A stretch of 63,032 bases of DNA, counting the filler, from Nemertoderma westbladi (taxonomy: Eukaryota > Animalia > Xenacoelomorpha): NCBI GenBank assembly GCA_032718475.1. It is 4 parts of 4 records of this genome, joined end to end, with 100 filler letters (N's around TTAATTAATTAA, not from the genome) between each part and the next. Parts side by side here need not be neighbours in the genome. Positions count along the whole stretch, not along the records: positions 20,895 to 50,319 come from JAUCBJ010009027.1; 3 more parts are not named here. One strand, written 5' to 3'. Below are positions 16,272 through 52,880 of this stretch, piece after piece. Each line of letters opens with the position of its first letter. Positions within the stretch are counted from its first letter, which is position 1. The position numbers and the translations under genes were made by a program. The notes under the pieces are model-generated. The model was given only the letters and a program-made list of their open reading frames with translations, was not told the origin of the DNA and searched no databases.

Positions 16272-18633
<2,362 letters not shown>

Positions 18634-25201: not shown

Positions 25202-26054
25202 CGCTGTCGCTATCAAGTATTATTAGTTGCATGGCCAATGGAATTTGGTCCTGGAAATGGCAGAGGTAAAGATAACGTTGATTTATCACGTCTGGGTTGA
25301 TGGTTCTCTTCACACGATAACAGCAAGGGTGGACCAATCAACTGATAGCTCCTGAAATGAGGTCGTCGATTACTCCGGATATCCTGGGTTTGAATTTCCT
25401 TCCGGAGTTGTTTTAATGAATAACCATTAGCTTTCATGTCCCGACATAATAATTTAGTAAGGAAATTTAGTAAGGAAGGTATAGAAGTTATTGTCAATCA
25501 TATTATTACTATGTATTATAATTTCAGCTCTATAATATTCACCACCACCATATTTTACTTCATCTCTCTAAGGCAACCGCCCATGCCATATTGCTTTGTC
25601 ATGCCGACAATATGCAATTGCGTGTGTAATATCCATATCAATTGTTTAGAACATTTAGAACATCTATCTATTTGAGATATTGCTGTTTTAATCCGTGAAT
25701 AATAATCGGGTATAATAATAATCGCATAATAATGCAGTGATAATACAGTAATACAGTAATAATAAAGAATAGGGCCTAGCCTACATCAGATATCATGATA
25801 TATGATGCCTTGGGCTGAATTTGGAATAATAGAGAAACCATTGAACCCCTAACCCTACAGTACCGGTAGGTATATTAAACAGCCTCTGCCTTTAAACATC
25901 CTCTGCCTATTGCTATAATAATAGGCTGATAATAGACCCCTAACAGCCTAAGGCAGGTATAGTGTATAGATAGGCAGCGTCACTGAAAGTACAATTTATA
26001 GAATTTAAATTTCCCTCTACTACCAGAGAACTCAATATTCTCACTGGATTTTAC

Positions 26055-27296: not shown

Positions 27297-28363
27297 GATT
27301 TTACACTTACCTTAGAAGCTCCCTACCACCGACCTTAGCACGCTACCACCGACCTTAGCTTTTACCACGCACCTTAGGCATTCCTACTCATGACAGCATG
27401 AGCTACTGAACCACTTGAATAATCGTTGTACAATAGCTATAGTGAATGCAAATGAGGACTTAATGTAATCTTTATAGCAATAATACAAGTTAATTCGAAC
27501 AAAATAAAATTTTGAAAATCCACGGCTTTTATGAGGATATAATTCTATACCGCTCAATGAAAACAGGATATTATCGTACATAAATATACGGTTTTCACCA
27601 ATAACAAATCAAATTATGGAATACTTAGGGCGTACCTACATATTTACAAATTAAATTTCAAACAATACTTCCTTTCTACATAATAATTCGGTACAAAATA
27701 ATTACAAATTCAAACTTTACATATTTAAGGCTTTATTAAGTAGGTATAATATAAATCTAAATTAAATTCACCAATATAAATCTATTGCATCTCGATATTG
27801 CATAAATTCAAATAATTACCAATACAAATGAAGTTATTGCATCTCAAATATTGCATAGATACAAATTGTTACAAATACAAATACTTTCGTGCCTAAAGAT
27901 AAATTGCATAAGTTCGGAATAATTACAAATATGAGTCTCTCTAAGTACGAACTTTCTAAATACAAAATTTTCTATTTACAAAATATAACTATTTACAAAT
28001 GAAGTTATAAGAAAGGCCCACGAGTCTTCCGTCTACTCTTGCCTCTTATTTCACTGCAAATACAAAAAATACTGCTTATAGGATATAAATTGCATAATAT
28101 TCGAAACAGTATAAATTGCATAAGTTCGGAATAATCACAAATATAAATCTTTCAAATATAAATTTCTTTCTAAATATAAATTTCTTTCTAAATTTAAATT
28201 TCTTTCTAAATGTAAATTTCTTTCTAAATATAAAACTTTCTAAATTTCATAAAATTGGAACAATACAAATACATAAATTTAGAACAATATAAAATCTGCA
28301 TAAGTTAGAACATAAGAAAGGCTCACGAATCTTCCGTCCACCCTTGCCCTCCCTTTTACCGCT

Positions 28364-30445: not shown

Positions 30446-31104
30446 TATTAGAAGTAATGGTTACATAATCATTGCTACTAGAGGGAATACAACAGAGTTT
30501 ATTGTTAGTTGTGAGGAGATGTGAGGGTTTTCGTCTGCCCTTTGGGCTTCGACAACGCTCTAACCTCCTACCCATAGCCTAAGATCTAAGGTTTCTTTAG
30601 TGACACACTGTTTCTTATTTAAAATTTTTGCCGAAATAAAAACGATTTGGGCTAAACTGGCTGTGAGTCTAAAATACTCACTTTTTGATCCCAAACTATT
30701 ATCAGAAAATAAGCAGTCAAGAATTAGTAATAAATATAGGGAAGTCTATTATTTGACGTAACTTATTGAAACAAGACCGTGTAAATTTATTAAAATTTAA
30801 GAAAGGCTCGCAAGTCTTCCCCTCTTGTTTCTCTAATTTTAAGTTCCACCCGACTGTACCCTGAAATCTATTCACTGGAGAAAATTTTTAAAATTTTTCA
30901 AATCCAAATGGATTGTCTAAAATTTCGAAAATGTCTCAATATTGTGAGTTCCAAGTAGAATTCCATTTCTTATACCTACAAATCCCGCTCCTATGTGACA
31001 CATAAGGGTACTACCCTCAATGTTCACATATAAAGACAATGGAATTCTACCGCTGTCTTTACTACAGTGTACAGGTACGTGGAAATCTATTTGTAAACTC
31101 TTAA

Positions 31105-33315
31105 TTATTTTCTAACATTAGTTGGAGATTTGTAGTCTCCAGACTCGTTTCGAGTCTCTTCTAGAAGTACGAGACGTTGAGTTGGTCTATCTACTGTACG
31201 ACCGTCAATTGTCCGTACCGTCACAGTTCTTGTCACTCCATCCATAGACGGATGTGTGGCTAAAATTACACTTGTTATCCAGAAGCGTCTTTTTAGATTC
31301 ACTTCTGCTAACAGCAAGTGATCTCCCGGTTTTAAAGCACGGGTATTATTGTACCAAGTTGTTCTGGCAGAAATAGAGGGCAAATAATGGTTTTGCCATA
31401 TTTCCCAGAATTTGTTAGCCAGTAGTTGCGTGATTTTCCACGCTTTTCTACCGTAGCTGTCGCTTTCTATTGGAATAGAAATAGGTGTCAAAGTAGTCGG
31501 TGCCTGCATTAGCAGGTGTGCCCGTGTTAAAGCAAATTGGGATTGTTTGTTATCGGGTACTAATACTATTGGTCTAGTATTTAGTATTGCCTCGATTTCA
31601 ACAAACAATGTGGTCAGTTGGTCGTCTGTCAAAATGTGGTGTACTGGAATGACCTTTGCCATGGCTGTTTTGATAGATCTTATCAGTCTCTCCCAGACTC
31701 CGCCTCTCCATGGACTATCTGGAGGATTAAACTTCCAAACAATCTTGTAAGGACGTTGTTTGTTTGAGATTTGATCATGATCTAATTTCTTAAAGGCTCT
31801 AGCAATTTCATTTCGAGCACCAACAAAGTTTTTACCTTGGTCTGAGTACAAGCATTTTACTAGTCCGCGTCTAGCGATAAATCACCGCAATGCTAGTATA
31901 AACGCGTTGGTGGAAAGATCCATCACACGTTCAATATGAACTGCCCTACTGGACGTGGACATGCATGTGAAAATCAGTCCCCAGCGTTTTACTAGTATAC
32001 GTCCACGTTTTGTATGTATGGGACCAAAGCAATCAATTCCAGTCTCTGTAAAAGGTGGTCTGAATGCTTGAAGTCGTGATTGTGGAAGTTTACTCATTTC
32101 TTGGGTACCTATTCTAGAATGTACCTTTTTACAAATAATACACGTACACGTCACTGAACTTGTACGTAAGTAAGAAAGACAGTGGTGTCTTCCAGCGTGT
32201 TTCAGATGTAAATGTGCGTCCAGTATCATTGCACGTTGTAATTCGTGATGTTGCGGTATTATTATTGGGTACCTAAAGTTTGTGTTAAAGTCAATGTTTT
32301 GAAGCCGAGATTTATGACAAATTAAGCCATTATAAATTATCGGACTCCAACTCAATATTGGTGACGACTTGATTGGTTGACCTTGACTTATAGATGTGAA
32401 TTCGCGTGCGAAATATCGCAATTGATAATGGCGAATTAATTTAATTTCACATCTGTCTATCTCAGTCAATGTAAGTCGACGTGTAAAGTCGCGTATGCCT
32501 TTAACGTATTGTACAAAACGTACAATCCACGCTAATTTTCGGCAAGCGTTTGTCCAAGAATCTGTAAGGTTTACAATGCGGTCGACGTAAGTATTTATGA
32601 CGTCATCAGTTAACTCAATGGTGAGTTTGGAAGGTTTTGTTTTACTAGATGGGCCCACGGGTACGCCGGTAAGTATTCCCTTGTTGACTGTTGATCCGTC
32701 CGGGTCTACAAGTAATTTGTCCTTCTTTGTCTTCTTAGCTTGATTGTCAGTACTTTGTATGTCGATCCCTAATGGTGGTTTGAACTCTATGGGGTCACTG
32801 GGTTTCGGTAAACTTATTTTTCTGCCGATATTAATCCCAGGTCTCACCGTAGGTTGTAAGTTTGGTATGTCTCTTGAGCGTAAAGTAACACCTGTATTTA
32901 CATTTGCGTAGGTACTACCCACATCTGTAATACATGAGGTTTCACTGTACTTATGGTTACTCAAGGGTGTCAAGTTTGGTAGTTTGTCAATACAAGGCCG
33001 CTCCAATAGGGAAACTGCGGCTTTACTATGTGACAATACATTACTAATGTCTGGTAGATCATTTTGTGATATGTCTGGCAAAATGTCTGGTTGACTGTCT
33101 AGTAATGCGTCTGGGTGTTTGTCAATAGAAGGCCGCTCCAATAGGGAAACTGCGGCTTTACTATGTGTCAATACATTACTAATGTCTGGTAGATCATTTT
33201 GTGATATGTCTGGCAAAATGTTTCGCGGAACATCCGGCGAAACGTCTAGTGACATACCTTGCAAAACGTCTGGTTGAACGTCTAGTAATGCGTCTGGTTG
33301 ACCGTCTAGTAACAT
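31105..33315 (-). pseudogene. pol: BEL/Pao integrase (HHCC + DDE core + C-terminal domain) preceded by a long linker
   Basis: HLHLKHAG..CIICKK, TGIDCFGP, RAVHIE, YSDQGKNF, GGVWERLI, EAILNTRP, FWEIW..YL and DGVTRTVTV. Internal stop at 31882. Confidence 0.92.
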
Positions 33316-36300
33316 GTCTGGTTGACCGTCTGGCGATGCGTCTGGTGAAGAAAGGCTCGCAAGTCTTCCACTCTTAACTTTGTAATTATAACTTTCCTTT
33401 TCACCTTCGGTTTCTTCCTTAATTTCGCCATTGTCCTTTTCTTTGCTTTACCTTTCTTTGGTTTTTTAATTTCGGCGTCTTTAGGGATAGTGTTAGACTT
33501 GTTGTCGTATAGTAGCGGCCAATATTGTGTCGATTTTTGTAAGAATTGTGGTCTGTGCTGCCAAAATTCCTTGTTCTCCGGTTTACAGAATTCCTCAGGC
33601 ATCATTCCTCGCGACGCAATATCAGCTGGATTTTGTGGTCCGGGAAAATGTCGCCAATCTTCTTTTATTGAACGGTCCAATATTTCCGCACGACAGTTAG
33701 CCACAAATGTCTTGAATTCAAGTGTGTCGTTGTTTATATAAAACAAAACTAATGTCGCGTCAGTCCAATAAAATATCTGTAAACTCGACTGTAATTCCGT
33801 CTGTATAAGGCTCACAATTGTGGTTAACAGAGTTGCTGCTTGTAGCTCAGCGCGTGGTGTTGTCATGTACTTAGTAGGCATGGTCTTAGCCTTAGAAGTA
33901 ATAAGCGACACATCAAACTCGTCTGAATCTACTTGTCTGCGCAAATACGCTGTCACTCCAAAGCCGTTGTCACTGGCGTCGGAAAAACAATGTAATTCTA
34001 AGTTGTCAGGAAATGTCGTCTGTAATGGAAAATATACCTGGGGTATGGAATAATCTTCTAATGAAGACAATTGCGCTTCCCAAGTTTTCCATAAGTCTAC
34101 TTGTTCTGATGAGATTGGTTCGTCCCATGTCAGTCCATCTTTCCAAATACTGCGCATGTATATTCTTGCTTGCAGTATTATTGGGCTGATGAAACCTAAT
34201 GGATCAAACAATCGACTCAGTTTTGACAAGCAGGACCTCTTTGTCAGAGAGTCTCCTTGAGCGTCCAGTCTTACCTTCACTCGAAAGTTGTCTGTGTTTG
34301 GGTCCCAAAAGAGCCCCAACACCTTGGTCGTCGGTAGTGGTTCAAACTCTAAGTCAATGTCACCACCTCCACGCTCAGTCGTTCCGAATGAATCTACTAA
34401 TTCGGCACTGTTTGAGGCAAACTTGGTTAGGTTAAAACCTCCGCCTGCTAAACAGTCCCGTAATTGATGTGCTACTGTTATAGCACTTTCTACTGTGTCA
34501 CAACTTTGTAACCCATCGTCTACGTAAAAGTCTCGTTCTACGATCTGGATTATCTCTGGGTCATACATATGTTTCTGGTCCCTAGTGGTCTGCTTTAGGG
34601 CGTACATAGTACAATTTGGGTTGTCCCTGGCACCGAAAACGCGAACTTGCATTTGGTAAGTGGCCGGTGGTAGACTTAAGTCTCCTTCCGGGTACCAGAG
34701 GAACCTCAAACTGTCTCTGTCTTGCTCTAACGCTCGCACTTGGTGAAACATCGCTTCGACGTCGCAAGTAAATGCTACTTGGCGTTGACGGAAGTGCATA
34801 ATCACGCCCATGAGATAATTATTCATGTTTGGTCCATCCATCAACTCACTGTTGAGGGACATTCCCTCAAACAGAGCCACGCAGTCATTAACTACACGTA
34901 CTTTGTCTGGTTTATCGGGATGTCTCACGTAGTGATGTGGTAAATAGTATGTCTGGTCTGTCACAATCTCTGGGTTAGTCATTCTGATAGCGTACCCCTT
35001 TGTCAAATACGTCTCCATCTGGGTATTATACTGCTTTAGACGTCTTAAAGCTAGCGGATAATTGTTTATAAGTTTAGGAATTTGGCTACGCCATAACATC
35101 CCTACCTCATAATGTCCGTCTTTCGTCTGGCGGATAGTATCTTCCATGATCTTCAAAGATTGTTTCTCTTGTTCCGACATACATGGTTCGTAACTACCAG
35201 GTTTGGCTGTATCTTGTTCCAACCACCTGATAGTCTTCTCCGTTAATTCTTTGTCCAGTGCAGCTTGTTCCACTTGACAGTTCCTTAATGCGTCATCATC
35301 GATATCGACGGGCATCGTTAATGTTATTGGTGTAGATAGACTCGCAAGCCTTCCGGCGTCATCATCTGTCGTTGATGGAACCTTTGCCTGATGCGTCTCC
35401 TTCTTAATCTCTAAACTTACCTCTTTGTAAAGTGGTTTCTGCTCCCTTTGACTTGTTGTACTTGCCACACACGTCGTACTTGTCACTTTGTCGTGTTTTG
35501 TCGAATTTCGGTGTGTAGTATAGTCAATATCGTTTGAAAAGGAATGAGTCAAAGTCGTAGTTAATAAACTACATGTACTTTGCATATCTCCTTCCTCGTC
35601 ACTTATATCTAGTGTGCGCACAGGCGCTCGAGTATACCACCCTATCGGCGTTCTGCAGGCGTATGCGTTTCCTGCTACGACTACCGATGGTCTGGTTTCC
35701 CACACTTGATGTAAGTTGAATTGGTCTGTCCCGATCAGCATTGCTACTGATCTATAATTGACAGGACATTCAGGTACACCAAGGTGTCTGAAATACTTAC
35801 GGTCCTCTAAGGATTGTTCCGGCACTTTACCCAGTAGGTTACTAAAGTCCTTTGTGGCCGCAAAAGTTAAATCCTTAAAGGGTAACAAAGACCTCTCCTT
35901 TTCGCTATGTTGCGATTTCGGAAGAAGAGTGTCTAAGTTTAACTTAACTCGTGTCACTGGTATTGCACGTTGTCCATGCATACTACTTACGGTATATCTG
36001 ACTTGCTTACCTTGTCTAAGATCTGTGACGACGTCAGCTACCTTCTCATCCACGTAACTGTGAGATGAGGCTGAATCTAGGATAGCGTAGATCCTTTTGC
36101 TCCCTTTTGTGCCTGTAATCTTAACGGGAATTACACTAAATCCTTTTAGTTGATCAGGCGTCAAAAGAGCAATCGATGGTTGTTCGTCTCCATCCGAGTA
36201 TATGTCGTCGTCTTCAGATTCTTCACCAGAAGACCCGGATTGTTCTGGGAAGCAATCCCAAATATGTGTCACGAACGTTGGCGTTGTTCTCGATTCGCGA

Positions 36301-36848
36301 TGCTTGTATGCAGTATTGCATTTCGCTGCTGCTTCTGGGTGTTCCCTAGTGAAACGTTTTGTCGGCGTATGACTGTCCGTGTGGAGCAAAGCGTCGTGAT
36401 TGCGTCCACATAGAGGACAGGTGTCGGTATTAGGGCAATCCTTGCGGACATGTCCATGTTGTGTACACCTCCAACAAGAATCTAACGGTCTTATTTGAAG
36501 CCGTCGTTCCTCTGAGTTTAATTTGCGGAATAGTCGACATCCCTTTAAGTTGTGGCTAGTATGTCGCTTACCAATCCGTTCGCAATATTGGCAACCGCTG
36601 AAGTCGGCATTTAGTTGCTGTCTGGTCTGTTTGATCCCAATAGGTGCGGATATTTTACTACCGTCCGAAAATTGTCGGGTTTCAGTTGGTGTAGCGTAGG
36701 TGACCGTCTTTGTGGATGTCGTTGGTTTTTGTCGGTTGTATGATGGTAATGTTATTCCTTCGGCTACAATGTGTTGATCTGTGTAGTTCGAACGAGTCTC
36801 CACTACTGCCTCTCTGGATATCAATAAGTAGACATCTTCCAACTTCAA
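33306..36848 (-). CDS. pol: BEL/Pao polyprotein part: Gag zinc knuckles, aspartic protease, RT, Pao RNase H
   Basis: CQYC..H..C, CWRC..H..C, CPLCGRNH..LLH; AILDSAS; YYLPHH, KVRVV, DVEAMFHQV, FYVDD; FDPLG, LHCFSDAS, TPRAELQAA, WTDA, NPADIASRG. Confidence 0.95.
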   Translation of the reverse strand: MKLEDVYLLISREAVVETRSNYTDQHIVAEGITLPSYNRQKPTTSTKTVTYATPTETRQFSDGSKISAPIGIKQTRQQLNADFSGCQYCERIGKRHTSHNLKGCRLFRKLNSEERRLQIRPLDSCWRCTQHGHVRKDCPNTDTCPLCGRNHDALLHTDSHTPTKRFTREHPEAAAKCNTAYKHRESRTTPTFVTHIWDCFPEQSGSSGEESEDDDIYSDGDEQPSIALLTPDQLKGFSVIPVKITGTKGSKRIYAILDSASSHSYVDEKVADVVTDLRQGKQVRYTVSSMHGQRAIPVTRVKLNLDTLLPKSQHSEKERSLLPFKDLTFAATKDFSNLLGKVPEQSLEDRKYFRHLGVPECPVNYRSVAMLIGTDQFNLHQVWETRPSVVVAGNAYACRTPIGWYTRAPVRTLDISDEEGDMQSTCSLLTTTLTHSFSNDIDYTTHRNSTKHDKVTSTTCVASTTSQREQKPLYKEVSLEIKKETHQAKVPSTTDDDAGRLASLSTPITLTMPVDIDDDALRNCQVEQAALDKELTEKTIRWLEQDTAKPGSYEPCMSEQEKQSLKIMEDTIRQTKDGHYEVGMLWRSQIPKLINNYPLALRRLKQYNTQMETYLTKGYAIRMTNPEIVTDQTYYLPHHYVRHPDKPDKVRVVNDCVALFEGMSLNSELMDGPNMNNYLMGVIMHFRQRQVAFTCDVEAMFHQVRALEQDRDSLRFLWYPEGDLSLPPATYQMQVRVFGARDNPNCTMYALKQTTRDQKHMYDPEIIQIVERDFYVDDGLQSCDTVESAITVAHQLRDCLAGGGFNLTKFASNSAELVDSFGTTERGGGDIDLEFEPLPTTKVLGLFWDPNTDNFRVKVRLDAQGDSLTKRSCLSKLSRLFDPLGFISPIILQARIYMRSIWKDGLTWDEPISSEQVDLWKTWEAQLSSLEDYSIPQVYFPLQTTFPDNLELHCFSDASDNGFGVTAYLRRQVDSDEFDVSLITSKAKTMPTKYMTTPRAELQAATLLTTIVSLIQTELQSSLQIFYWTDATLVLFYINNDTLEFKTFVANCRAEILDRSIKEDWRHFPGPQNPADIASRGMMPEEFCKPENKEFWQHRPQFLQKSTQYWPLLYDNKSNTIPKDAEIKKPKKGKAKKRTMAKLRKKPKVKRKVIITKLRVEDLRAFLHQTHRQTVNQTCY

Positions 36849-37015
36849 GAATCCACCTTGTTCTTCTCGCTGATATTCGATTTTTCGCCACTCCCGACGA
36901 AGTCAATGGTGTAATCTTCCTATTATTTTTAATAGGACTGTAGGAGTGTTTGCGTAGTCAAGTTGTCCAATTGATCGTAGCGTAGTAATGGCGTTTTTAA
37001 TCTCGTCAGCTAATT

Positions 37016-40000
37016 TCAGTAAGTCAACGGGTTTTGTAATAGCCCCCCCTTACAGAGTTCTTCTATCACTGACTTAGCCATACTTAAGGTGCCTCCGTAA
37101 ATCGAAGTTAAGCGATCGTACGCTAATTCGAAGGCGTCTGGTACACCGACAAAAGTCTCCGCTAGACGTTTCGGTTCTCCCGTCAGAGTTTGTAGCAGGT
37201 AGTTAAACTTTTCTCTCGATGTGAAGGCGCACGCCGCAATTTGTGATTCGATGTAATCCACAAACGTGTGCCAATGTTTGGAGTTACCGGAAAACTTAGG
37301 TGGTTGTTGCACCGGTAGTCCTTGTCTAGCTGCGAATTTTGCTATTTCCTCGGCTATGTTCAAAGTTTCGCATCCTTGGTTGGCAATCGAGTTGATGTTC
37401 TCTCGTCTTGACACTTTCCTTTGATACGAGGTGTTTCTTGAAGGTATCGGTTTTTGCTGAATGTTCTGGTTTCTATTGTGTTCGAATTCGGTATTTCTCG
37501 AACTATCAGTTTGAACTTCCTCTAAACGTTCTTCAATCTGGGCCAACTTGTTGACAACTGGGCGCATTATTTCGGCAAATTGTTGCGTGCTAATCGCGTC
37601 TGTTGGTTGTAACGCTTTCTGTGTTGGTGTATTTCGTGGAGGATTATCGATAAAGGAATTATCTGAACGCTCACGTTTACATTCGTCAGCCGCTCCTGTT
37701 CTAAATACCTTGCGTTCCGGGTAATCCGATTCACTTGAAGTACTACTGTCACCTGGATATGGTGGCTGACGTGCTCGCGTCCGTTGTGTCGTCCGAATCC
37801 TAACATTCCGTTTTGAAACATCATCTACTGATTTCCGTCGTTCGGTAGGCTTGCAGGTCTTCCCCGAAGTCGTAGAATGCGATGTAAACTGGTTAAGCGG
37901 TCGCGTATCCACTGGTCTCCGTTGTTCGGTAGGCTCACAAGTCTTCCTCGAAGTCGTAGAATGCGATGTAAACTGGTTAAGCGGTGCGTATTCACTGGTC
38001 TCCGTTGTTCGGTAGGCTCACAAGTCTTCCTCGAAGTCGTAGAATGCGATGTAAACTGGTTAAGCGGTCGCGTATCCACTGGTCTCCGTTGTTCGGTAGG
38101 CTCACAAATCTTCCACGAAGTCGTAGATTGCGATGTAAACTGATTAAACAGTCGCGTGTCAACTGGTCTCCGTTGTTCGGTAGGCTCACAAGTCTTCCTC
38201 GAAGTCGTAGATTGCGATGTAAACTGAGCCGGTAGTCGCGTGATAGCATTTGAATCAACAGGCGTTGTAGGCCGAAATACCATTGGGTATGCGTAGTGCG
38301 TGACAGGTTTTGGTGTCGAAGGTTGACTCACCTGGTTAGTCGTCAGTAATGCAGGTCCAGTCAATAAACTACTACGATCTGTAATTGGTGGGTTACTTAC
38401 CTTGACTTTCAGAATAGGCGACAACGTTGCTCTTGGCGGTATAAACTTGTCCGGAATAACATACCTGTGTTCCGTCGCATTGCGTATAGGAGATATACTG
38501 CTACTACCCGCAATCGAAACAGGTTCCTTAGTCGTAATTGGTACAAACATGGGAGTTACTTGTGGGAATCGTTGACATAGGTCTTTAACTAATTGTCGTT
38601 CTCGTTCAGGTGCTCCTACACTTCCTTCCTTCATTCGTTCCTGAATTTGGCGGTGCCTTACCTCTATCCGGTCTAAATCGTGTCCGTCTCGAGATCTCAT
38701 CGATCGATCGCGGGCTTTAAGATCCAGATCTTCCTTGGTGTTCGCTAATTCTCTTGCCTTCCTTTCAAGTTCGAAATGAAGTTTAGCTTCCTTTTCCCGT
38801 TGTTCCGTCTGTTGTTGTTGCGCCTCGAACTCCGCTAGTCGTATAGCTGATTGAGCCTTTATCTGACGTTTTCTCAACTCGGCTCGGGCTTCCGAAACTC
38901 GCCTTTGTTCGTCCAACTCTGCTGCTTCCGCTTGTTGTTCCAACTCAGCCGCTGCCACTGCCGCTGCTGCTTGTCGTTCCAATTCAGCTGCTGCCGCTTG
39001 TTGCGCTAACTCTGCTGCCGCTGTTCGTTGTGCTATTTCTAGCTCTAACCTTTCCATTTTGGCTGCTTCCAATTTGGCTGCTTCTTGTAGATGAGAGATT
39101 CTCACAACATTTGCGACGCGTAGTTTCTCTTCCTCTACGGCTGCTTGTACAGTTAACAATTGAGTTTGTTCTTCAATTACTTGTTGTTGTCTTTGGTACT
39201 GTTGTTGCTGTCGAGAAATTTCTGACGTTACTATACTTACTTCGCCAATTTCGCTGTGAATGCTCACTAATGATTGATCTAGTATCCCTGGTGCCGGTTC
39301 GATTTGTGCGAGTGAAGTTTCCCTCGTAGCTTCCGGCACGGTTTCCCAATCTCCAACGTCTTCGCCGCACATGCGTAAGTGATCCGTCAGATGTTGTAAT
39401 TGTCCATCCAGTCTGTACAGTTCTTGTTCTTCCTCGGGTTGCAATAATTTGTCGGAAACTGACTCACCTAGTAACTGATCCGCTTGCTCCTGTTGTATCT
39501 GCCTAACGGTCGTCTTAAACTGAATTAGTTTCTCTCTCGCGATCATTAATTTCTCGAGGATTCTTAGTTGAGTGTCCATGTCCTGTCTCTGTCTAGCTAG
39601 ATCTTGTAGACTGATAAGGTTATCTACGGACTTATGTACTTTACTTTGTACTCTAACCTGTAGGGTGTAGAACTCAAACCGAGACATCGGAGCGGTCAAC
39701 TCATCTAATATGCGTTGGCCTTCTCCAATACTCCTGGTAATGTGCGCCATGTATCCTCTGACGCTTCTAACAACGCTCTCTTAGCTCCTTACTGAACTTA
39801 CCATGTCCGTTTCCCTGTGTCTAGGTTGCGGAACAGTTAGAAAATCCTCGGTCCTGCCGTCGCCTCGTACTACGGCATCCGGTACTCCCGTTGGATGTAC
39901 TGGTGACGCACACGGTGTAGGTTCGGTAGGCTCGCGAGTCTTCCCCTGTGGTTCTTCCGCTACTGACTTATCCGCGTCACATGAGTCATAGTCGGTAGGT

Positions 40001-40032: not shown

Positions 40033-43000
40033 TTCGGTAGTTGTAAGTCAAGTACAATGTGAGTGTCAAAGTATCGAATTTACCGTATTTATTTATAAAT
40101 GGTACTAATTACAGTCATATAAAATTAGCCTACCGACCGATTTTATAGCAAATGGATAAAATTAGCCTAACGGCCAATTTTACAGCAAATAAATGTCACG
40201 GAAGAAGTATATAATAAAATTAGCCTATCGGCCAATTTTATAACAAATAAATCGGATAACGATATACGTTATCAAAATATAAATCAACACAAATAATTAC
40301 AGACTAATTCAGCAATAAACAAAGAAATCGTACGGAATGCATAAATACTTGAGACAGTGGAACCCGCAATAATTTTAACTAATACGGTAATGCCTAACTG
40401 ATTAATGCAACTTTTCGAACTTACCCACTCCAATAATTCTCCAGAAAAACAGATTCCCAGATACAGACCGGACGTGAACCTTTCTGTTTCCAGCATTGCG
40501 GACGAAGTGCGATTTTCCCAACCAAAATTGTTGAGTTATCTATCTCCCAAACTCGCGAAACACGGTCTTGCTCCCGTTACAGTCTAGAAATGAGCTCTGA
40601 ATCCTGAAAAACAAAAGAGTTTGGTTTTACTTTTACGAAAATTTTGTACCGGTACAATATGGTATTTAAACCCTTTTTAAACACCAGTATTCAATTCCAA
40701 ATTATTTTTACACACGGTTCAAATTTAAAATTTTGTCAAAATATTAGCACTTAGCTAATCAAATACAAATTTTTACCTTAAAATACAAAATTTTCAAATA
40801 ATTTTGTTCTACTGAACTATAGTTCAGTAAATCATATTCCTACTATATGAAGAGACAGTAACAAATTATACCGCAATATCTTACTGTAAAGTTTGTGAAT
40901 CAAGCATAATCCAACCTTCTCACCAAAACAGTAAACTCTAAGTAAGCGAACCTATTGCAGTATTGGTCTCCTTTAACCGGTGAGGCAGAAGACAGTCTAC
41001 GAACGGACAAACTTCGATAAAACAAAATCCCGCGCAGCGAATCCTAACAATCGTGCTGACTCACTGACGGACTAAGGGTGCTCGTATACTTTGCCGTGGT
41101 GTGATTTATATGGGTTGAGAGAGACTCTAGCTACAAATATAACTAGCGGGCAAAGCCGCAGTACGAACAAACTATTTTATATATTTTGAGGTGTAAATAA
41201 TTCCTAAACGCTTGTATTTCTTAATTAATAGGTCAAAATTGGTTTTATCCTTCATATAATCTCATTTACTGGGTCCGGCGTTTATTTTACAAATATTCTA
41301 ATATTTTGGTAACTTGTAAGTCCAATACTTACAAATGACAAGGCTCCTTCCCCTTTTGTGTATTTCCAGGACTCAAATTCAGGCATAAGGTTAATGCTAC
41401 GCCCAGAATTCGGCAATTTTATTTACCAGGTCCTTAATACTAAGAAAAAATGTGTTAGTTTACTACTGTAGGCATACAGTTACAAATAGCTATCCTGGCT
41501 CTTATCTAGAATTTTAGTCACCTAGGTAGGCTGGGTAACTTCCTATCAGGACGTTGGCGGGGACACGGTAGGTGTTAGTATCCCTAATAGTCTTAATTTA
41601 TTTTCGCCTAGTGGTAAACTGCCCTACCGCCTGAACGGTATAATCTCAATTCAGGGAAAACACAGCAACCCTCTCCTGGCCTACAAGTTCCAACGCAAGC
41701 AATAAACACCGTGTACTGCCGACAAGCCACCAACGCACCTATAACTGGCAATGAGTTAGGCGTACAGTTTGCTGCACCCTACCAATGTACATGCCGTGTA
41801 ATGGTGTGCCTGTGTCTTATCTGTGTACGTGTATCTCTGCCTAACCTTTCTCTCCCCCCGTAGGAATATGAAGGGGTTCTGCTGGTTTTCAATGAAGTAA
41901 GGTAATACAGTTCCTAAATTTAAATTTTTGGTGTACAGTGTGTCGCTACTCTTACCGTCGATCTTAGGTCTTACACTTAGGTAGCAAAGCATCGAACACT
42001 GTCTAACCTTTCAGGCGATGGGCGAATAACTACGAATCGATATTGTGGGCGGTCTCCTGTTCACATTCCCCCGATGTTCCCGTTTACTGCCGTGGCCCGA
42101 TGTCTAGCCGGCCATCCTGTTCTTTAGTGGTGTTCACCGTAGTGAAACATAGTTCACCGTAGTACCCATGCGTATCGCACGTGTCTAGCATGCGATTCTC
42201 TTCAGTGTAGAATAAACCAATGGCCATATATGACCAAATAAATTAACCCTATCTGGTCCGGTCTATTTTACTACTCAATTGGCCCAGGGGGGGGGGGGGC
42301 AGAGGGGGGTCATTTTAGACATTTGTTTATATCTTGGCTCAAAAATTATAATTTCAATGGTTTAAAGGTTTTCGAGGTCGCTGTTTACGATAAAACTTGT
42401 TAAAAAAATATTCTGGCAATGCAACCATCATTTTTAGTGCCATCTGGTGCTCCAGAATGAAAAGTACAAAGTAGCAAAAATTTCAAACTGTTAAATTTTG
42501 CCTTTGGTTTGATAAGTCTAAAGCTATATAGTGGTTTTCAAGGTCGCTGATCATGATACAACTCGTTAAAATCATTCGTGGGAATATGAATGCTACTATG
42601 ATCGTAGGTGCTTGTCTGCTCTGGGACGAAAAATACAAGTAGCATAAAATTTTAAACGACAAAAATCTAATTTGGTCGGATAATATGATATTGAGTGGCA
42701 TATATGTGATCTACAGTAGCATCCTAAAAAACACCTATGTCATAAAATCAGGTTGATATTTGGTAATGATTTTGGAATATCAAATTTGTGCTACTTGTAT
42801 TTTTCGTGCTGCACATTGACACATATCCAAAAATGCCGTAATTAACAAGGTACGATATTTTTTAGTGTCATATTCGTGATCATGGATCAGCATCCCGAAA
42901 AACTCAAGGTGAAAATCAATTTGATTTCGTGGTGATATTTAATTAGGGCCTATCATATTTTATTATCATAATTGAAAGACATTGTCGGACAATGTCAGAG

Positions 43001-44474
43001 AAAGTGAATGGCAAACACTGTCGGACAATATAACACAAGTGGTTCGAGTAAATTACGGCGAATAAAGATACAAAAGAAAAACAAAGAAAGAAAAGATACA
43101 AGAAACGTTAAAGATATATTCTTTGATGTAATAACTTCAACGATAAACTATTACTATACATAATGTAATTTTTCTAGAATAAAAAGAACATTTCCAGTAA
43201 ACAGAAAACATTGCCGATAAAGTTTTTACATTTATTAAAAATTCAATTTCATAGATAAAAATAATGAATCTATAAACAATGCAGGAGTGGGAAATAATCT
43301 GCGCTATAATAACTTTTAAGAAACGAGAATAAAGACACAGATATAAAAAAGAACAATAATACCTCGTAATGGACATTGTAAGAACGTAGGCCATATTTTT
43401 TATAATTTATTTACTCCAACATTAATAAGCGCGAAATTTATAACATGGAAACGTAGACATAATCGCCTCAACCATTAAGCAATGGAATGTCAGTGATTTA
43501 GAATCCCATCCCTCGGTGCCAGCGCCCCCACATAGCGCCGCCAACCCATCCATCCATTGGTTGAGATCGGTATCGTCCTTAGCAACGAACAACCACTCAG
43601 GGCCGCCTTTTTAACATTTAAAGTTTATTTAACATATTAACAATCTTAATGATATTATTTCATACAATAAGCAGGACAAAATAATCTCCACTCCAGTTAA
43701 AGTTTAACGGTATATACTATATATCCATCCATCTTACTCATCGCTGTCGCTATCAAGTATTATTAGTTGCATGGCCAATGGAATTTGGTCCTGGAAATGG
43801 CAGACGTAAAGATAACGTTGATTTACCACGTCTGTGTTGATGGTTCTCTTCACACGATAACAGCAAGGGTGGACCAATCAACTGATAGCTCCTGAAATGA
43901 GGTCGTCGATTACTCCGGATATCCTGGGTTTGAATTTCCTTCCGGAGTTGTTTTAATGAATAACCATTAGCTTTGATGTCTCGACATAATAATTTAGTAA
44001 GGAAATTTAGTAAGGAAGGTATAGAAGTTATTGTCAATCATATTATTACTATGTATTATAATTTCAGCTCTATAATATTCACCACCACCATATTTTACTT
44101 CATCTCTCTAAGGCAACCGCCCATGCCATATTGCTTTGTCATGCCGACAATATACAATTGCGTGTGTAATATCCATATCAATTGTTTAGAACATTTAGAA
44201 CATCTATTTGAGATATTGCTGTTTTAATCCGTGAATAATAATCGGGTATAATAATAATCGCATAATAATACAGTAATACAGTAATAATAAAGAATAGGGC
44301 CTAGCGTACATCAGATGTCATGATATATGATGCCTTGGGCTGAATTTTGAATAATAGAGAAGCTATTGAACCCCTAACCCTACAGTACCGGTAGGTATAT
44401 TAAACAGCCTCTGCCTTTAAACATCCTCTGCCTATTGCTATAATAATAGGCTGATAATAGAACCCTAACAGCCT

Positions 44475-47400
44475 GAGAGAGGGCTGTTGCGCTGTCAGTC
44501 AGAGAGGTAACAGCCCTTGGGGTAAGGATTTACCTCTGGGACCTGTATTAGGCAAAATAGCAGTAGCTGTGTAGGCCCACCAGTACTGTGCACGGTACAA
44601 GACCCAAAATTTAGCCTACATCTGTAAATAATACACGGTTTCGCGGTACAAGACCATATAAATTAGACCACCATCTGTAAAATGCTCGCCTGAGTTCAGG
44701 ACTTGCACAGATGTCAGGATGTGCTGATTCTATATCATCCACTAACGGATTCTGGTAGCCTGGAACTAGACTAGACCACTACAAAAACTGATGCGACAGA
44801 GCGAGGTGCCATTAGCCTAACATTTCTCGGAGGCTGGTCCGATAACACTCAACTCATTGTTTGGTTGGACATTGACATTATTGCATTACAGTGTACATTA
44901 TTACATACTGATTAGTATGGATTGAGAAATTGGATATATTTGGACGTCAATGGATGGATAGGTTTGGTTTGAGAAACTAATATCACGTAGGCCTACCTTA
45001 TCATATATTTGTGATAATTATTACTAGATCAACTGGCCCCCAGCCATCTTCAACAAACCATCATTGCCGGGGGGCACTCAGCTGAGGGGGCTGGGGGTGG
45101 AGCGCATTAAAAACCGCGACCTAATGGACCAGGGCCATTTCTTTCACTCCGTTGCTTTGAGACCTTTGGCCGCCCTGGTCCAGAGACATCACCTTCCCCC
45201 GGGAGATCGGGGCTCATCTCCACAGTGCCACCCACGAACCGCATTTTGGTTGGTAATGCAGCCTCAGTCATGCGGACAGCAACCACACCGACCATCGGTC
45301 TATTCGGGGACTGAAGAGCCGAAACTGTCGAAATGGTTGCCAATGGAGTCACCAACGGGATGACGGCCGAAGATATTCAATACTCTATCTTATGCAATCT
45401 CAAATATTCAATTCGGTACTGTACCTTCAATTCAATCTTATTATTATTTCTGTGCTCGTTATTTAATAATGTGATTAGATAAAAAAATAAATTAATGAAA
45501 TAGAATTCATCTGTTAATTATTACAAAAAAAAATCCAAAATTATATTAACATTTATATAGTTTTGAATTAAATGTTTCGAAATCAATACAGCAGTGTCAT
45601 ATATCGCGTATCCCTTGGTTTAATCACTATTCTTTATTCAAGTAAAACTGAATGAATCCTTCACCCTCCACTGATAATTTAAAATCGTAACTCATTCAAT
45701 CTTTGACTAAATTATACCAAACTTGGTAAACATTAGAGTTGAAACATAGACTTGTCACTGATCTCTGGATTCTCCGGGCTATTTTTTGGTCTCCTGATAG
45801 GTCTCTGGTTCCCGGGTATTGAAAACAGACATTTTACCCAGAGATAAGTGATTTTAGAAATTATAAATAGATATTTAAAAATAGATCCTGTACAACACAA
45901 AATGTGAAATTAAGATTTTTTTTCACTAATTTTTTACTATTTACTCCGCTTCAACAAAATTATATATTCACTTTTACACTGTTTTTAATCTAACTCTAAA
46001 TCTGACTCAAACTAAATGTACCGATAATCTTCTATTTAATTTAAGGTTCGTTTAATTTTAAGTTAAATTAGCACCTAAAGATGGTTCCTATTTAAGGATA
46101 AGGGCGCTTCATTTGAGCACCCATAATGTTTAAAAGTTAAAGAAAGGGCTGATCTCCATTTAATTTGTTATAATAGATAATATGAAGACCAAATGGAGAG
46201 AACGAGCATAACGAGGCTTGTAAATGGGGCGAGTAGAATACCATACCTGTGCACTGTATTCGTAATTTACTAAGTTTATTTTATAGTACATTGAATGAAA
46301 TGTATATGATTTGAACAATAATTGTAAAATAAGTGCCTTTAATTAACAAAGTACCGGTACCTATGGCGCAAAACAAATTTATGTGACATATTATTATTAA
46401 CAATAACAAAATAAGAACGAATTAATAAACAAATAACCAAATTAATATTAATTAAGTCCCCCAAACTGTGCGTGCGCTTATTTTCTTCCAATGGGTCAGG
46501 GTTGACATGGGTTGGATGTACTGTAATTCAACCATATAAAAATAGTTATCAGTCCATATGTACCTGTTTGTGCTTTATGGGACTAATCAAAATGTAAGTA
46601 CAAAAATAAGCAAAGTCTCTGATCTCCGGCTCTGGTCTCCGGTATTTTTCAAAATAATTCTCCGGGTAGGTCTCTGGTTCACCGGGATTAAGAAAAACAG
46701 GTCTCTGTTGCAACTCTAGTAAACATGTAATCTTGTCTATCAGCTAAAATAAACAAAACTTGCTAAAATTTCCCCTATAATGTTTTTTCCTATAGAACAG
46801 GATGCAGTTTTATTTTAGTAGTAAACAAGCTGTTATTTGCGTCGATTTTCACCTGGAGAGGGAAGAATATTGATTGCCCCCCCCCCCCCCCCCCCCCCCC
46901 CTACCTGCAGTTAAGTGAAAATATTTCGGCACCATTTAATTTTATTATCACGGTCGCGCATCAAGTAGTCTGTCAAAAGATACAATTCATTATAAACATA
47001 ACAAAATTAATTATAATAATTCTAAAAATATAAGGCCGATTATCCTAAAGTTAGCTCTTTAGTCTTTAGCAATCTTATACATTGACAAGACTTATAAAAT
47101 AATTGATGTTGAATAATTATTATTAGGAATTCGAAGAAAGCAAATTGTATTGAGTTAGTATTGGCAAGTTAATCTCACAAACCAGTCTACGGTCTAGTCT
47201 AACTTTACAGTACCGGTAGCCTTGTTCGCATTGTTCCAGGTTTAGTTAGGCTTGGAACACAGACTCCGTGCCGTCTTCGTTCCAGGTTTAATACTGTAAT
47301 AGACTGTTATCCATCTCGATCGCTTCGCTATGCACCATCTTACTGGGTTTAATAAACTCCGTCGCCTTCCTGTCATTCTGTGTTTTGTACATTACCTCGC

Positions 47401-47879
47401 CATCGTCTGATCGCTTTGGTTGCTGGTTGCGTGTTTAATACTGTAATAGACTCCATCGCCATTGTCAGATTGTATCGTTATGGATTGAATAGACATTCCG
47501 TTGTCCATCGCGATCGTTTCATTGTTTACGTTTAATTGACTCCGTCGCCTCCTCATCGGATTAGGAATCCGGCCGGGTTTCGTAGATTCCGCCATCGTTC
47601 AGCAGTTCAGTGTTTTTAATCAAAGCCAGAATTCCGGCACGGGCACCACGATCAACGATTTCGGAAGTAACAGACCAGCAGACTCCGTCAACAACACTCG
47701 GGGTTTAAAAAATACAACTGAGGGCAACTTGTAACTGCAGAACTGGGCGATCATCTATCTGATAGTTGAAAAAGACTGTCTGACAGTTGGTATCAGACTA
47801 TCTGATAGTTAGCGCCCCATGTAAATCCTTACCCCATGGGCTGTTACCTCTCTGACTGACAGCGCAACAGCCCCTATAG
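44475..47879. mobile_element. Non-autonomous TIR element with 8-bp TSD, private to the right LTR
   Basis: TSD AACAGCCT (44467-44474, 47880-47887) and ~50-bp inverted repeats GGGCTGTTGCGCTGTCAGTCAGAGAGGTAACAGCCC.TGGGGTAAGGATTTAC. The empty site is at ~25942 in the left LTR. Confidence 0.85.
45734..46718. mobile_element. hAT-like MITE nested in 44475-47879
   Basis: Imperfect TIRs TAGAGTTG(A/C)AACA(T/G)AGAC and 8-bp TSD GTAAACAT (45726-45733, 46719-46726). Confidence 0.85.
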
Positions 47880-48384
47880 AACAGCCTAAGGCAGGTATAG
47901 CGTATAGATAGGCAGCGTCACTGAAAGTACAATTTATAGAATTTAAATTTCCCTCTACTACCAGAGAACTCAATATTCTTACTGGATTTTACACTTACCT
48001 TACCAGCTCCTTACCACGCCCCTTAACAAGCTACCACCGACCTTAGCACGCTACCACCGACCTTAGCTTTTACCACGCACCTTAGGCATTCCTACTCATG
48101 ACAGCATGAGCTACTGAACCACTTGAATAATCGTTGTACAATAGCTATAGTGAATGCAAATGAAGACTTAATGTAATCTTTATAACAAGTTTATTCGAAC
48201 AAAATAAAATTTTGAAAATCCACGGCTTTTATGAGGATATAATTCTATATACAGGTCGACGCATGTCGATTTTACCCTGGAGAGGTATAATTTTGATTAC
48301 AACAATAATATTCATCCCTATCTGCTACTGTACAATTTGAAGAAGACTATTACATAATAATACCTATAATTAAAACAATTAATT

Positions 48385-50257
48385 CAACCGGGCCCACCAA
48401 CACCCTCCGACACCCATCCGGGCTCAACTACACCCGCCGACACCCTACCGGACTCACCAACACCCGTTGACACCCAACCGGGCTCATCAACGCCCACCAG
48501 CGCCCAACCGGGTAGTTCAACGCCCACCAGCACCCAACCGGTTTCAACGCGGCGCGCTACAGAACCAACCGGCCAACCCTCCTGCAGATCGCAACGCCAA
48601 TGTTGGTACGCTGACGATGCCTCATCAGCAGGTCGATTATCGGGCATCTGGGAGTGGTGGACAGAGCTTCTTCGCCTGGGCCCCAGCATCGGCTACAACC
48701 CCGAACCGACCAAGAGTTACCTCGTGGTCAAACCGGGGTTGGAAGACGAGGCCCAGGCGATGTTCGGTCCGAGTGGAATTCGGATCTGTGCTGGTCACCG
48801 TTTCCTCGGGGGATATATCGGAGATGAGGCTGGCCGGAAAGAGTTCGTTGCCAAGAAAGTCGACGGCTGGGTTGGCAATATCGGGAAACTCGCGGGGGTT
48901 GCAACAGAGTACCCCCAGACCGCCCACACGGGAATGTCCCGCTGTGTGCAGGCGGAATGGGACTACCTGCTGCGGGTCGTACCCACCCACGCCGAGGATG
49001 TCACCCCAATTCGGACGGCATTGCTAAGTAAGTTCATCCCCTCCCTCTTCGGGTGTTCTAGTCTGCAACCGGCCGACGAGGATCTCACCCTCCTCCCAGC
49101 CCGCCACGGTGGCATCGGACTGCGGGACCCTACAATGCGGCAGACCCCGGCACGCTCTGCGTCCATAGAAGGCACCGCGGTAGTTTCCGAGGCGATCCAG
49201 AGGACGCAACCTCTCCACGTGGCCGACCACACTGCCAAATTGCGAGCCGTCCTCGCAGCTAGCCGCATCTCCCAGGACGAGGCCTACAAGGAGAAGCGGG
49301 AGGCTGCGTTGGGAGCTCTACCGGCAGACCGCAGGCGAACTGCGACGCGAGCGGTCCTAAACAAAACCGGCGGCTGGTTGACGGCCCAGCCAAGCATCCT
49401 GGACGCCACCGACCTCAGTGCCGAGGAGTTCCGGGACAGCCTGAACCTCCGGTATGGCCTCGTCCCACCAGGACTCCCGTCCAAGTGCGAGGGATGTGGG
49501 GGGACGTTCTCCACCTCGCACGCGCTCAGCTGCAAGTCCGGCGGCCTCATCGTGAAACGCCACGATGAGGTTCGCGATGTTTTCGGGGAACTCCTGGCGT
49601 CGGCATTCGGTGCGCCCAGCGTTGAGCGGGAGGTGACCCTGTCCCGGGGGTACCTCGACAGGGAAGGTAGGGAGGTAGGGGGAGTGCGGGCGGATTTGGT
49701 CGCGCGGGGGGTTTGGGCGAACCAGAGAGTGGCGTCGTTTGACATTGCGGTAATTAACGCTGACGCCACCTCTTACGCCCAGACCAACCGCTCGACCGAG
49801 TCCCTCCTGGAGCAGCGGTGCCGGTTAAAGAAGATGCATTACCGGACCGTCTGTGAAGACCGGAGGATGTCGTTCACCCCTCTGGTGGGCACCACCGACG
49901 GTGTCTGGAGCGCCGAGGCCCAGATCCTCATCCGCCATCTCGCTGAGACACTCGTGGCCCGGCGGGATGGAATGCGAGAGAGGGGCCTCGCGTGTGTCAT
50001 GGGGGGTGTTCGACGGCGGCTGCAGTTCGCGCTTCTCCGGTCCAGCTCCCTCTGCCTCCGGGGCGGCCGACGGTCGTGGCGAGGCTTGGGCTTCGGGGAC
50101 GGGGCCGGTCTGCGAGGTGCGGGGCTGGCAGACCAGTTCTGAGTCGCTTTGTGTGGTGATGGGTATTTGTATTTTTAATGTTTTCTATTTGTATTTTGTC
50201 TAATATATATATATTGTATAGTAAGTAGTCGGATTATATTTTATATTTTATGTTGAC
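48385..50257 (+). mobile_element. CRE-like RLE non-LTR retrotransposon, truncated and internally deleted
   Basis: GC-rich insert with 7-bp TSD ATTAATT (48378-48384, 50258-50264), interrupting a MITE copy homologous to 26770-26955. Confidence 0.85.
48604..50142 (+). pseudogene. RT C-terminus + CCHC + restriction-like endonuclease of a CRE-like element
   Basis: WYADDA at ~48604 (frameshift before 48724); CEGC..H..C-KSGG..RHDEVRD, RADL, FDIAV, KKMHY and FTPLV. Confidence 0.88.
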
Positions 50258-50794: not shown

Positions 50795-52880
50795 TTACCT
50801 GATTACTGAATTAAGTAACCTGCATAATCTTGTAACATGTGTTAACTTTCGTTTATTGTTTTGGTTCCCCCAACTGCCCAGCACGCCTCTGTCTGTCTGT
50901 AACCTGCTCCTTTAACCTTTCCCCGGTAACGTGGGGTAAAAAATTACCCCAAGGGGATACATTTGGATATTTTTCGCCAATCTCTCATATTATGTATGTC
51001 CAGCTTCATAGTATCTTCCAATCAACTTGTAATCTATCCATTGTGTGGGCCAGTCCCAGAAAATTATGCTTATGAAATATTTTATGGGCCCTTAATTTAA
51101 AAAAAACTTAGTTAGGTAAGGTGGGGTATAAAAATACCCCACTTATTGCTGGTATTAAATAACAGTATTCTTCATTATTTAGACTTCATTTCAGCCTTCA
51201 TTTATTCTTGTAGGCCTACCATGTACCATATCTAGTATGAGTAAATTATCTGGTACAGGTCTGGTATAAAGTTTCATTATTAAATATATTCTTCTCTACA
51301 TGCTGACAAGTATCTGGTATCTGAATGTTTAAAGAGTTATCAGTACCGGTGTGATAGTAAGGCATTCAATTATTAAAATGTCTGATATTGATGAGTGCAT
51401 AGATTATGAAAGCCTATCTGAGGAAAGTGATTGTATGGATGAAGAATGGGAGGAGGAGGATAGTGATGGGACTGATGTAGCATTGGATTTCGATGAAGAT
51501 ACCGATATCGGTACTGAGTCTACTGACTCTGGGGATGATGTTGTTTCATGTTCTGAACCTCCGGCTAAGCGCCCGTGTATGACATATACTGCTAAAAGTG
51601 GAAGAAAATGGTGTAGTATGCCTCCAGAATCACAAGGAATCAAGGCACCTTCAAGTAATATTGTCAAACAATTCTGGAATTACAAAACGAGCGAGCTTCC
51701 AAACTAAACAGGAATGTTTAGGGTTATTTCTAACTGTGGATATGATAAACATTATCGTCCGTGAAACAAATAGAAGGGCTAATCGAATTCATAGACAAAT
51801 AAGGGTATCTCCATTATGCTCTAAAGCAGTAGATTGGAAACAGTTGGACAGGGAAGAATTTACGGCTTTCATTGGGCTATTGATCTTGGCTGGCGTACAT
51901 AAATCCGCCCATGAATCTACAGAAGAGCTTTGGAGTTTGGATTCAATGCCAGTTTTTCGTTCTGTAATGACAGAAGTTAGATTCAAGGAAATTTTACGTC
52001 ATGTAAGATTTGACAATGTCATTGATAGACCCCAACGTCGAGAAACTGACAAGCTAGCAGCATTTCGTGACTATGGGAGTTATTTCTTGCCCAGCTTCCA
52101 GTAATGTACAAACCGGGGTTTGACATGACGGTTGATGAGCAACTTGTTGCATTTCGTGGAAGGTGTCCATTCAAGCAATACATTCCAAGTAAGCCAGGTA
52201 AATATGGCATTAAGATTTTCTGAAATTGTGATGCTGAAACATCGTACCCATTGAAGGGACAAATTTATTTGGGGAAACAACCACACCAGCAGAGAACTGA
52301 AAGTGTGGGGAGTAAAGTAGTAAAGGAAATGACCGACAAGTGGACTAAATCAGGAAGAAATATAACATGTGATAATTTCTTTACCGACTGTAAGCTTGCA
52401 GAAGAACTTCTTGTTGAGGATACTACAGTTGTTGGAACAATCAGGAAAAACAAGAAGGATGTCCCAAAAGCAATCAAACCTCAGCCTGAACGACCTGTCA
52501 AATCTTCGATATTTGGATTTGATAGAAAGCTTACCATGGTCAGCTATGTGCCAAAAAAGAATCGTGCTGTAGTGCTGCTCAGTTCAATGCACCATGATGA
52601 TAAGGTAGACCCTGTCACACAAAAACCAGATATTATCACACACTAGGCCTATAACAAAACTAAATCAGGAGTGGATAACCTTGACCACCTTGTTAGATTG
52701 AGTTCATGTAAACGTGGCACTCGACGTTGGCCTTTGGCATTATTTATGAACTTGATAGATGTTGCTTGTGTAGCAGCATATATTGTTTGGCACAAGCGTT
52801 ATGCCACCACAACCACCATTAGTGAGAAACATGGGCGACGAAGAATATTTTTGAAGAATCTTGGTTATGAACTTGTAAGA

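Follow-up and report, generated by a model that had tools for sequence, protein, structure and literature searches.

The retrotransposon described here, a BEL/Pao element of Nemertoderma westbladi with long terminal repeats (LTRs), probably primes minus-strand DNA synthesis with RNA derived from its own LTR, as judged from its sequence and predicted folding. The element occupies 48249–20974 on the minus strand of the stretch of DNA that we analysed (63,032 nucleotides (nt), assembly GCA_032718475.1; henceforth the window), in which positions 20,895–50,319 come from JAUCBJ010009027.1. The evidence is comparative and predictive. A preliminary description had proposed self-priming by the 5′ end of the RNA; the proposal gained support from complements with different letters in relatives, from apparent conservation of the complementary segment in the element's own family and from a predicted second helix, whereas its RNA-5′-end form did not. 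Since the present copy is broken by stop codons and frameshifts, the mechanism would apply to active ancestors and sister copies.

Self-complementarity in the element and its relatives

The 5′ LTR (40844–48249, minus strand) is followed by a primer binding site (PBS) position (40832–40843, minus strand) that lacks the TGG of a tRNA-type site and is complementary to a 12-nt segment of the LTR (41860–41871, minus strand; the 12-mer, or candidate self-primer), with its 3′ end at a distance of 1,016 nt from the LTR boundary. The 3′ LTR contains a copy of the 12-mer (21990–22001, minus strand). The 12-mer and its complement had three matches in the whole window, as compared with 0.01 expected by chance. 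The complementarity is exactly 12 nt long, starting directly at the 5′ LTR end (offset 0), with no extension on either side; the positions of the 12-mer, the absence of TGG and the exact fit to the LTR boundary given in the preliminary description were all confirmed in the sequence. Complements of at least 12 nt in the 3,890-nt LTR core were rare by chance, being obtained at offset 0 with 1 of 4,398 pseudo-PBS words and 1 of 3,000 shuffles (~3e-4), and at offsets 0–5 with 4 of 2,199 pseudo-PBS words and 11 of 3,000 shuffles (~2–4e-3). Under a Tf1-like rule, the PBS is complementary to the element's own LTR over at least 10 nt, 0–5 nt from the LTR end, and the window element has 12 nt at offset 0. 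The fit to the YYANWYY consensus that had also been pointed out is real but weak, the motif being present at 0.7–1.0% of positions in this element. No tRNA genes were found in the window, and an Rfam search of the window and the LTR region gave no match, and hence no known ribozyme.

Five public sequencing runs cover the stretch in part, none of them recorded as RNA; the one run that may be RNA reaches neither the 12-mer nor the PBS. Thousands of short contigs, mostly of 90–99% identity, indicate that the family is abundant. At 41795–41945, where we compared 94 contigs from two samples, contig depth peaked over the 12-mer and no variant was located at 41861–41867 among the variants listed; at two of the three variant positions of the 12-mer (41860 and 41869), the variants keep a G:U pair. 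These sequences fit a constraint on the 12-mer within the family, weakly if taken alone. For this family we rejected the idea that an intron interrupts the 12-mer, with no joint or loose end falling inside it among those listed.

As relatives we used BEL/Pao elements recovered either from contigs of metagenomes or from what appears to be host DNA within bacterial genome bins; scans of viral contigs found no BEL/Pao loci. Whole animal-type BEL/Pao elements (L012–L028) were present in GTDB bacterial bins, including a bin (G003) with 13 Peptidase_A17 matches, and contamination by host DNA is the most likely origin of the elements in such bins. In 14 relatives the LTR was delimited by a second copy, some being cut by the contig end; eight were without TGG at the PBS position and six had it. 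A perfect 11–12-nt complement was found in seven of the eight TGG-less elements, and the eighth (L018) had 11 nt with one mismatch, whereas the longest complement in the six TGG-type elements was 7 nt. As a control, LTRs and PBSs were swapped between elements, upon which 2 of 210 pairs reached 11 nt. Both this control and the final count used a loosened filter for splice acceptors; a stricter one missed L021 and L070.

For seven of the eight delimited TGG-less relatives, the complement appeared only after removal of a putative GT-AG intron (76–1,022 nt) from the LTR; that of L019 was contiguous, as in the window element. When 16 further loci were scanned blind, complements turned up in L003 and L013, and that of L074, which has a variant donor, was found by eye and then computed. 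Altogether, 11 of 12 TGG-less relatives had an 11–12-nt complement, formed across a putative GT-AG intron of the LTR in 10 of the 11. The blind scan detected no complement in the TGG-type L002, the PBS of which we take to be tRNA-Tyr-like, and two contiguous matches in L007 were set aside because an inverted duplication probably accounts for them. The LTR ends of L003, L013, L020 and L074 were deduced from a single LTR. L001, L004–L007, L012, L016, L017, L024, L068, L069, L075 and L077 had no usable LTR/PBS junction and were left unscored; L022 duplicates L070, and L078 duplicates L019.

The 11 relatives carry 10 different primer words, all of 11–12 nt. Their complements start 0–5 nt after the LTR end, apart from L027 (8 nt), whose LTR end is uncertain, and the pairing ends in AC in 9 of 12 elements, the window element included. 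In the sisters L014 and L015, the primers differ at three letters of exon 1 and the PBSs differ to match, the kind of compensatory change that the preliminary description had proposed to look for in related families.

The complement is split across the intron as 3+8, 6+5 or 6+6 nt in L014, L015, L018, L020, L021, L027, L070, L003, L013 and L074, and AATAAA follows the primer by 0–33 nt in nine of these ten. This intron-split primer is more novel than the contiguous form of the window element.

A tree of 18 labelled rows of the reverse transcriptase (RT)–RNase H region (LG+G4, midpoint root; unlabelled rows and the near-duplicate L065 left out) placed the window element in a 97/99-supported group together with all 11 self-complementary relatives and L002, with five TGG elements apart. 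A single clade of the 12 self-complementary elements was not rejected (p-AU 0.35, approximately unbiased test), though not recovered as such. In a 40-row quick tree, the window element fell outside a tighter group holding 10 of the 11 relatives, near L003. It forms a long separate branch (end branch 0.87), its best RT–RNase H identity in the trees being 41–43%. The trees are composed of the recovered loci and of database proteins, with no named reference element; judged on such trees, a new BEL/Pao lineage is plausible. The sequences indicate that PBS self-complementarity is common to a wider BEL/Pao branch and is not special to the window element.

Predicted fold, transcription start and alternative explanations

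In the mechanism we propose, the transcript from the 5′ LTR would fold so that 41871–41860 pairs with the PBS. The ~1-kb loop would be held closed by a 10-bp hairpin predicted directly after the PBS (40808–40831, minus strand) and by a second helix, in which the purine tract that immediately follows the 12-mer (41845–41859, minus strand) pairs with a pyrimidine tract near the LTR end, at the end of U5 (40849–40855, minus strand). If Tf1 is a guide, the RNase H domain would then cut after C41860 to leave a 3′-OH, from which RT would copy ~1,016 nt (40844–41859) as strong-stop DNA before jumping to the 3′ R region. Within the purine tract, it is 41855–41849 that is predicted to pair with 40849–40855. 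When segments were ranked as partners of the last 30 nt of the LTR, those starting at 41855–41859 took ranks 1, 2, 3, 6 and 7 of 1,157. With the RNA 5′ end set at 41871 or 41950, the predicted pairing probability was 0.83–1.0 for the primer helix and ~0.7 for the second helix. A long-range fold is thus plausible in the model, in a manner that depends on the start site chosen. Additional pairing upstream of the 12-mer was also considered and rejected, being absent here (P 0.52) and modest in the relatives (P 0.015–0.92).

A transcription start at ~41870, which would make the primer the RNA 5′ end, had been put forward earlier but was neither shown nor favoured: the primer spans a putative splice junction in 10 of 11 relatives, and among the relatives it seems as a rule to be internal to the transcript. 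A TATA-like motif was present 25–32 nt upstream of the primer start in one of the 11 relatives (L015, at −26), and such motifs were found at −95 and −97 in L003 and L074. None was found in the 221 nt upstream of the 12-mer in the 5′ LTR; the corresponding part of the 3′ LTR contains one at −104. Three AATAAA motifs (41602, 41423 and 41286; 41281–41602, minus strand) are situated downstream of the 12-mer, and none follows the TATAAA boxes at 41181 and 41110. From this layout, the genomic RNA should start upstream of ~41290, which fits either model of the start. Within self-priming, we lean towards a start some tens of nt upstream of the 12-mer, which would make the primer internal, in line with the relatives; a Tf1-like start at 41869–41871 is a possibility that we hold with less than even confidence. 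The leader also contains a predicted splice-like donor and acceptor (40604–40779, minus strand), recognized by their motifs. As for the TATAAA boxes, Tf2 has a separate mRNA promoter, according to the available part of PMC5341516, and by analogy the boxes could, speculatively, be a second promoter.

Several observations weigh against self-priming as outlined above. The introns in the relatives' LTRs are deduced from GT-AG motifs, and L023, which is without TGG, had no complement in its LTR, which is incomplete in the contig. The TGG-type L002 lies inside the group of self-complementary elements. The spacing of the window element is also unlike that of its relatives: primer and LTR end are 1,016 nt apart, versus 44–153 nt in all 11 relatives, and 257 nt separate the primer from the AATAAA downstream, versus 0–33 nt in 9 of 11. 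Both predicted helices drop to a probability of 0.01 when the RNA 5′ end is set at 42030, and the predicted pairing is absent from the single best structure with the 5′ end at 41950. Within the element's own family, the variant at 41868 (9–14% of depth) breaks the pair if the PBS stays unchanged. In the 12-mer 3 of 12 positions vary, versus 15 of 35 and 13 of 38 in its flanks (28 of 73), a difference that is not strong by itself. Among the rows listed, the flanks have 11 indel rows and the 12-mer has none, 13 further indel rows and 8 loose-end rows being unlisted.

We weighed these results against other explanations of the complementarity. The pairing may be real but structural or regulatory, for instance in packaging, dimer formation or a translation switch, while some other RNA acts as the primer. 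Relatives have additional short helices flanking the 11-mer, as would suit such a folded leader; in 11 of 12 elements, however, the complement is 0–5 nt from the LTR end, where the 3′ end of a primer must sit, its length is fixed at 11–12 nt, and no TGG site stands in its place. We therefore regard a purely structural role as unlikely. Alternatively, a host tRNA fragment or another small RNA could be the primer, with the 12-mer of the LTR as its copied relic, much as half-tRNAs prime without TGG in some Copia lineages described in the available text of PMC6317226. It is difficult to reconcile this idea with 11 distinct primer words, each PBS matching its own LTR, or with the ten elements in which the match needs removal of an intron, which a host RNA would leave unexplained, and we consider it very unlikely. 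Least probable of all, in our estimation, is that the 12-nt match is a chance one and the true primer some other molecule. A genome scan does look at many elements, and the window element is a long branch with a spacing unlike that of its relatives; even so, the chance probability at offset 0 is ~3e-4, the length, position and AC end are as in the relatives, and the second predicted helix adjoins the 12-mer.

Self-priming itself could take place in trans, if a separate short polyadenylated LTR RNA were cut to become the primer, a sub-case to which we assign a small part of the probability given to self-priming as a whole. It would account for the intron that persists in both LTRs of relatives although the primer needs splicing, and it accords with AATAAA lying within 33 nt of the primer in 9 of 11 relatives and with the length of the cis loop here (1 kb). 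The retained intron can equally be explained in cis by an unspliced 3′ R region, and the window element speaks for a cis fold through its predicted second helix and its high pairing probability.

Organization of the element and other features of the window

Self-comparison of the window identified the 5′ LTR (7,406 nt) and the 3′ LTR (20974–27549, minus strand; 6,576 nt), both lengths including insertions, with five blocks common to the two (48249–40844 versus 27549–20974). The common core amounts to ~3,890 nt (3.9 kb), with a Kimura two-parameter distance of 0.019 between the LTRs (3,884 sites). Both LTRs have TATA...TATA ends, which bears out the TA..TA ends and giant LTRs noted earlier. The flanks read CTGTA at 48250–48254 and 20969–20973 (minus strand) as a target-site duplication (TSD), and CTGTA occurs once (26769–26773, minus strand) in an empty-site paralog, an uninterrupted second copy of the host transposon located inside the 3′ LTR. 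The empty site and the duplication confirm the limits of the element, which measures ~21 kb without private insertions. These include an insertion (44481–47873) that is confined to the 5′ LTR and bounded by 53-nt terminal inverted repeats, and a transposon (26062–27290) that is confined to the 3′ LTR, also has terminal inverted repeats and belongs to the same family as the insertion target of the element. Apparent old DNA-transposon ends inside U3 are common to both LTRs (42161–44477 and 22778–25952). The giant LTR may therefore consist in part of sequence that was captured and then copied in reverse transcription.

At the position of the polypurine tract (PPT; 27550–27561, minus strand) there is a mostly purine stretch of 6 nt, and 27550–27575 of this strand is without a clear tract, so that plus-strand priming is unexplained or the copy is mutated there. 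The purine tract after the 12-mer was ruled out as the true PPT of a 1-kb LTR, since the TSD and the empty site fix the boundary at 48249; the high variability of the stretch within its own family also counters this idea. The terminal TATA follows CA and may, as a speculation, correspond to the 0–5-nt spacer between CA and PBS of the relatives, kept in the integrated end. The ends of AtRE1 are TA...TA, and our literature search found no papers on TATA-ended LTRs.

Pfam matches to DUF1759, Peptidase_A17 (E 1.6e-41) and DUF5641 confirmed the BEL/Pao domains, and protease, RT, RNase H and integrase motifs as well as three Cys-His knuckles of gag were readable in translation. All coding frames are on the minus strand. 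An alanine/glutamine-rich frame for the gag N-terminus, preceded by an in-frame stop, has no Pfam match at E 0.001 (37828–39780); after a frame change comes the gag frame with DUF1759 (37019–38017). The three knuckles, protease, RT and RNase H with Peptidase_A17 are encoded at 33309–36902, with a weak zf-CCHC profile match (E 0.0068), and the integrase region with DUF5641 is in another frame (31108–33447). The coding breaks thus comprise in-frame stops before 39780 and at 31882–31884, within the integrase region, and frame changes in gag and pol. The extra open reading frame (ORF) that had been claimed was found after pol at 28561–30460, in three frames and with three zinc-knuckle-like motifs. 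It is without a close homolog, having one match, over the knuckle alone, among 1.84 billion representative proteins, and its atlas scores are below 0.9; possibly, it encodes a nucleic-acid-binding accessory protein. The closest database proteins of the RT–RNase H region show ~42% identity over long matches and up to 54% over short ones; all 120 homologs among the matches listed carry PF05380, and the best named ones are from echinoderms, cnidarians, a hemichordate and a nemertean.

Other features of the window include a non-LTR element at 9997–13842 (minus strand), whose endonuclease and RT are encoded together in a single frame of 1,281 aa beginning inside a 30-nt tandem array. At 6711–9104 (minus strand) there is an intronless frame with a HECT domain (E 2.3e-5) and a single interrupting stop, which may have been carried as cargo of a transposon. 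A tandem array with a perfectly identical 54-nt repeat extends over ~2.4 kb (16272–18633), and a 48-nt array is situated beside an N gap (19673–20884). A 269-nt perfect-type palindrome (58359–58897; 99%, 1-nt spacer) has IS4/piggyBac-like transposase fragments (51583–52104 and 59113–59802) and a GIY-YIG frame (60866–61369) near it. Just upstream of the 5′ LTR, a GC-rich insertion (48385–50257) with a 590-codon open frame and no Pfam match interrupts the host transposon copy.

Known self-priming systems and implications

The window element resembles Tf1, Tf2, Tj1 and the Tf1/sushi group in having a PBS complementary to its own LTR and no tRNA site; that group also has flanking helices (the 'pretzel'), as described in the accessible portions of bioRxiv 10.1101/2022.12.06.519325 and PMC4600332. 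The Tf1/sushi elements are Ty3/Gypsy chromoviruses, whereas the window element is BEL/Pao by its domains, and no chromodomain was found in the profile search. The Tf1 primer is the RNA 5′ end, which is unlikely for most of the BEL/Pao relatives, and the present element differs further in its loop of 1,016 nt and in a predicted single long-range flanking helix accompanied by a local hairpin. Self-priming has also been predicted for TAR/Houba/Osr-1 (Copia) and Tcn1 (Gypsy) of plants from a complement of at least 10 bp located 0–5 bp after the 5′ LTR, a rule to which the window element conforms; these belong to other superfamilies and hosts, and a spliced primer is not described for them in the part of PMC6317226 available.

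The virus taxonomy committee ICTV describes the Belpaoviridae as having an 18-nt tRNA-Arg/Gly PBS, a PPT of ~10 nt, LTRs of 0.2–1.2 kb and genomes of 4.2–10 kb, with a tRNA-primed, poorly understood replication (PMC8742986). The window element shares with this family the gag–protease–RT–RNase H–integrase order, the three Cys-His knuckles in Gag (frame 36902–33309), the Pao-specific Pfam families and LTRs with a short, 5-bp TSD. It differs in that TGG is missing behind the LTR, the PPT is weak, the LTR core measures 3.9 kb, the length is ~21 kb without private insertions, the ends are TATA...TATA in place of TG...CA and there is an unrelated extra ORF. We keep the superfamily assignment by protein and call the element a variant, because 12 relatives with the same domains are also without a TGG PBS. 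Sinbad-like elements are reported to be common in marine animals (PMC8220671, in the part available), and the best named protein matches of the window element, in the animal groups given above, liken it to the Sinbad/Suzu/Sailor-type marine clades. Identity is only ~40% and the trees contain no named reference elements, so we place the element in none of these clades; Sinbad LTRs have TGT...TCA ends, according to the available text of PMC554778.

The preliminary description had stated that no such mechanism is described for BEL/Pao, and in the portions of the literature open to our search we likewise found no report of BEL/Pao self-priming or of a spliced primer. A term search of the available text of PMC6238403 and PMC3118150 gave no match for PBS, primer or tRNA; that of PMC554778 gave none for tRNA, and 'primer' in the laboratory sense alone. 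The sequences thus point to a new variant of a known self-priming mechanism, in a superfamily thought to use tRNA. With somewhat less than even confidence, we envisage that self-priming is ancestral in a large marine BEL/Pao branch and that in most of its families the primer is built by the spliceosome, the present element being a deep intron-free lineage with a 1-kb two-helix loop, TATA ends and a novel zinc-knuckle gene.

The window element yields sharp predictions, namely a cut after 41860 and strong-stop DNA of ~1,016 nt. Elements of this kind would be expected to escape annotation software that insists on TG...CA ends, on a tRNA PBS, on a PPT or on short LTRs. If self-priming is true of BEL/Pao, this would be the third LTR superfamily with such a mechanism, after Gypsy, where it has been shown, and Copia, where it is predicted, and would bear on the proposal, in the available part of PMC3601003, that hairpin or self-priming preceded tRNA priming. 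The relatives suggest that a primer need not be the RNA 5′ end and that splicing can build it; spliced primers, if true, would put the replication of these elements under the control of splicing.

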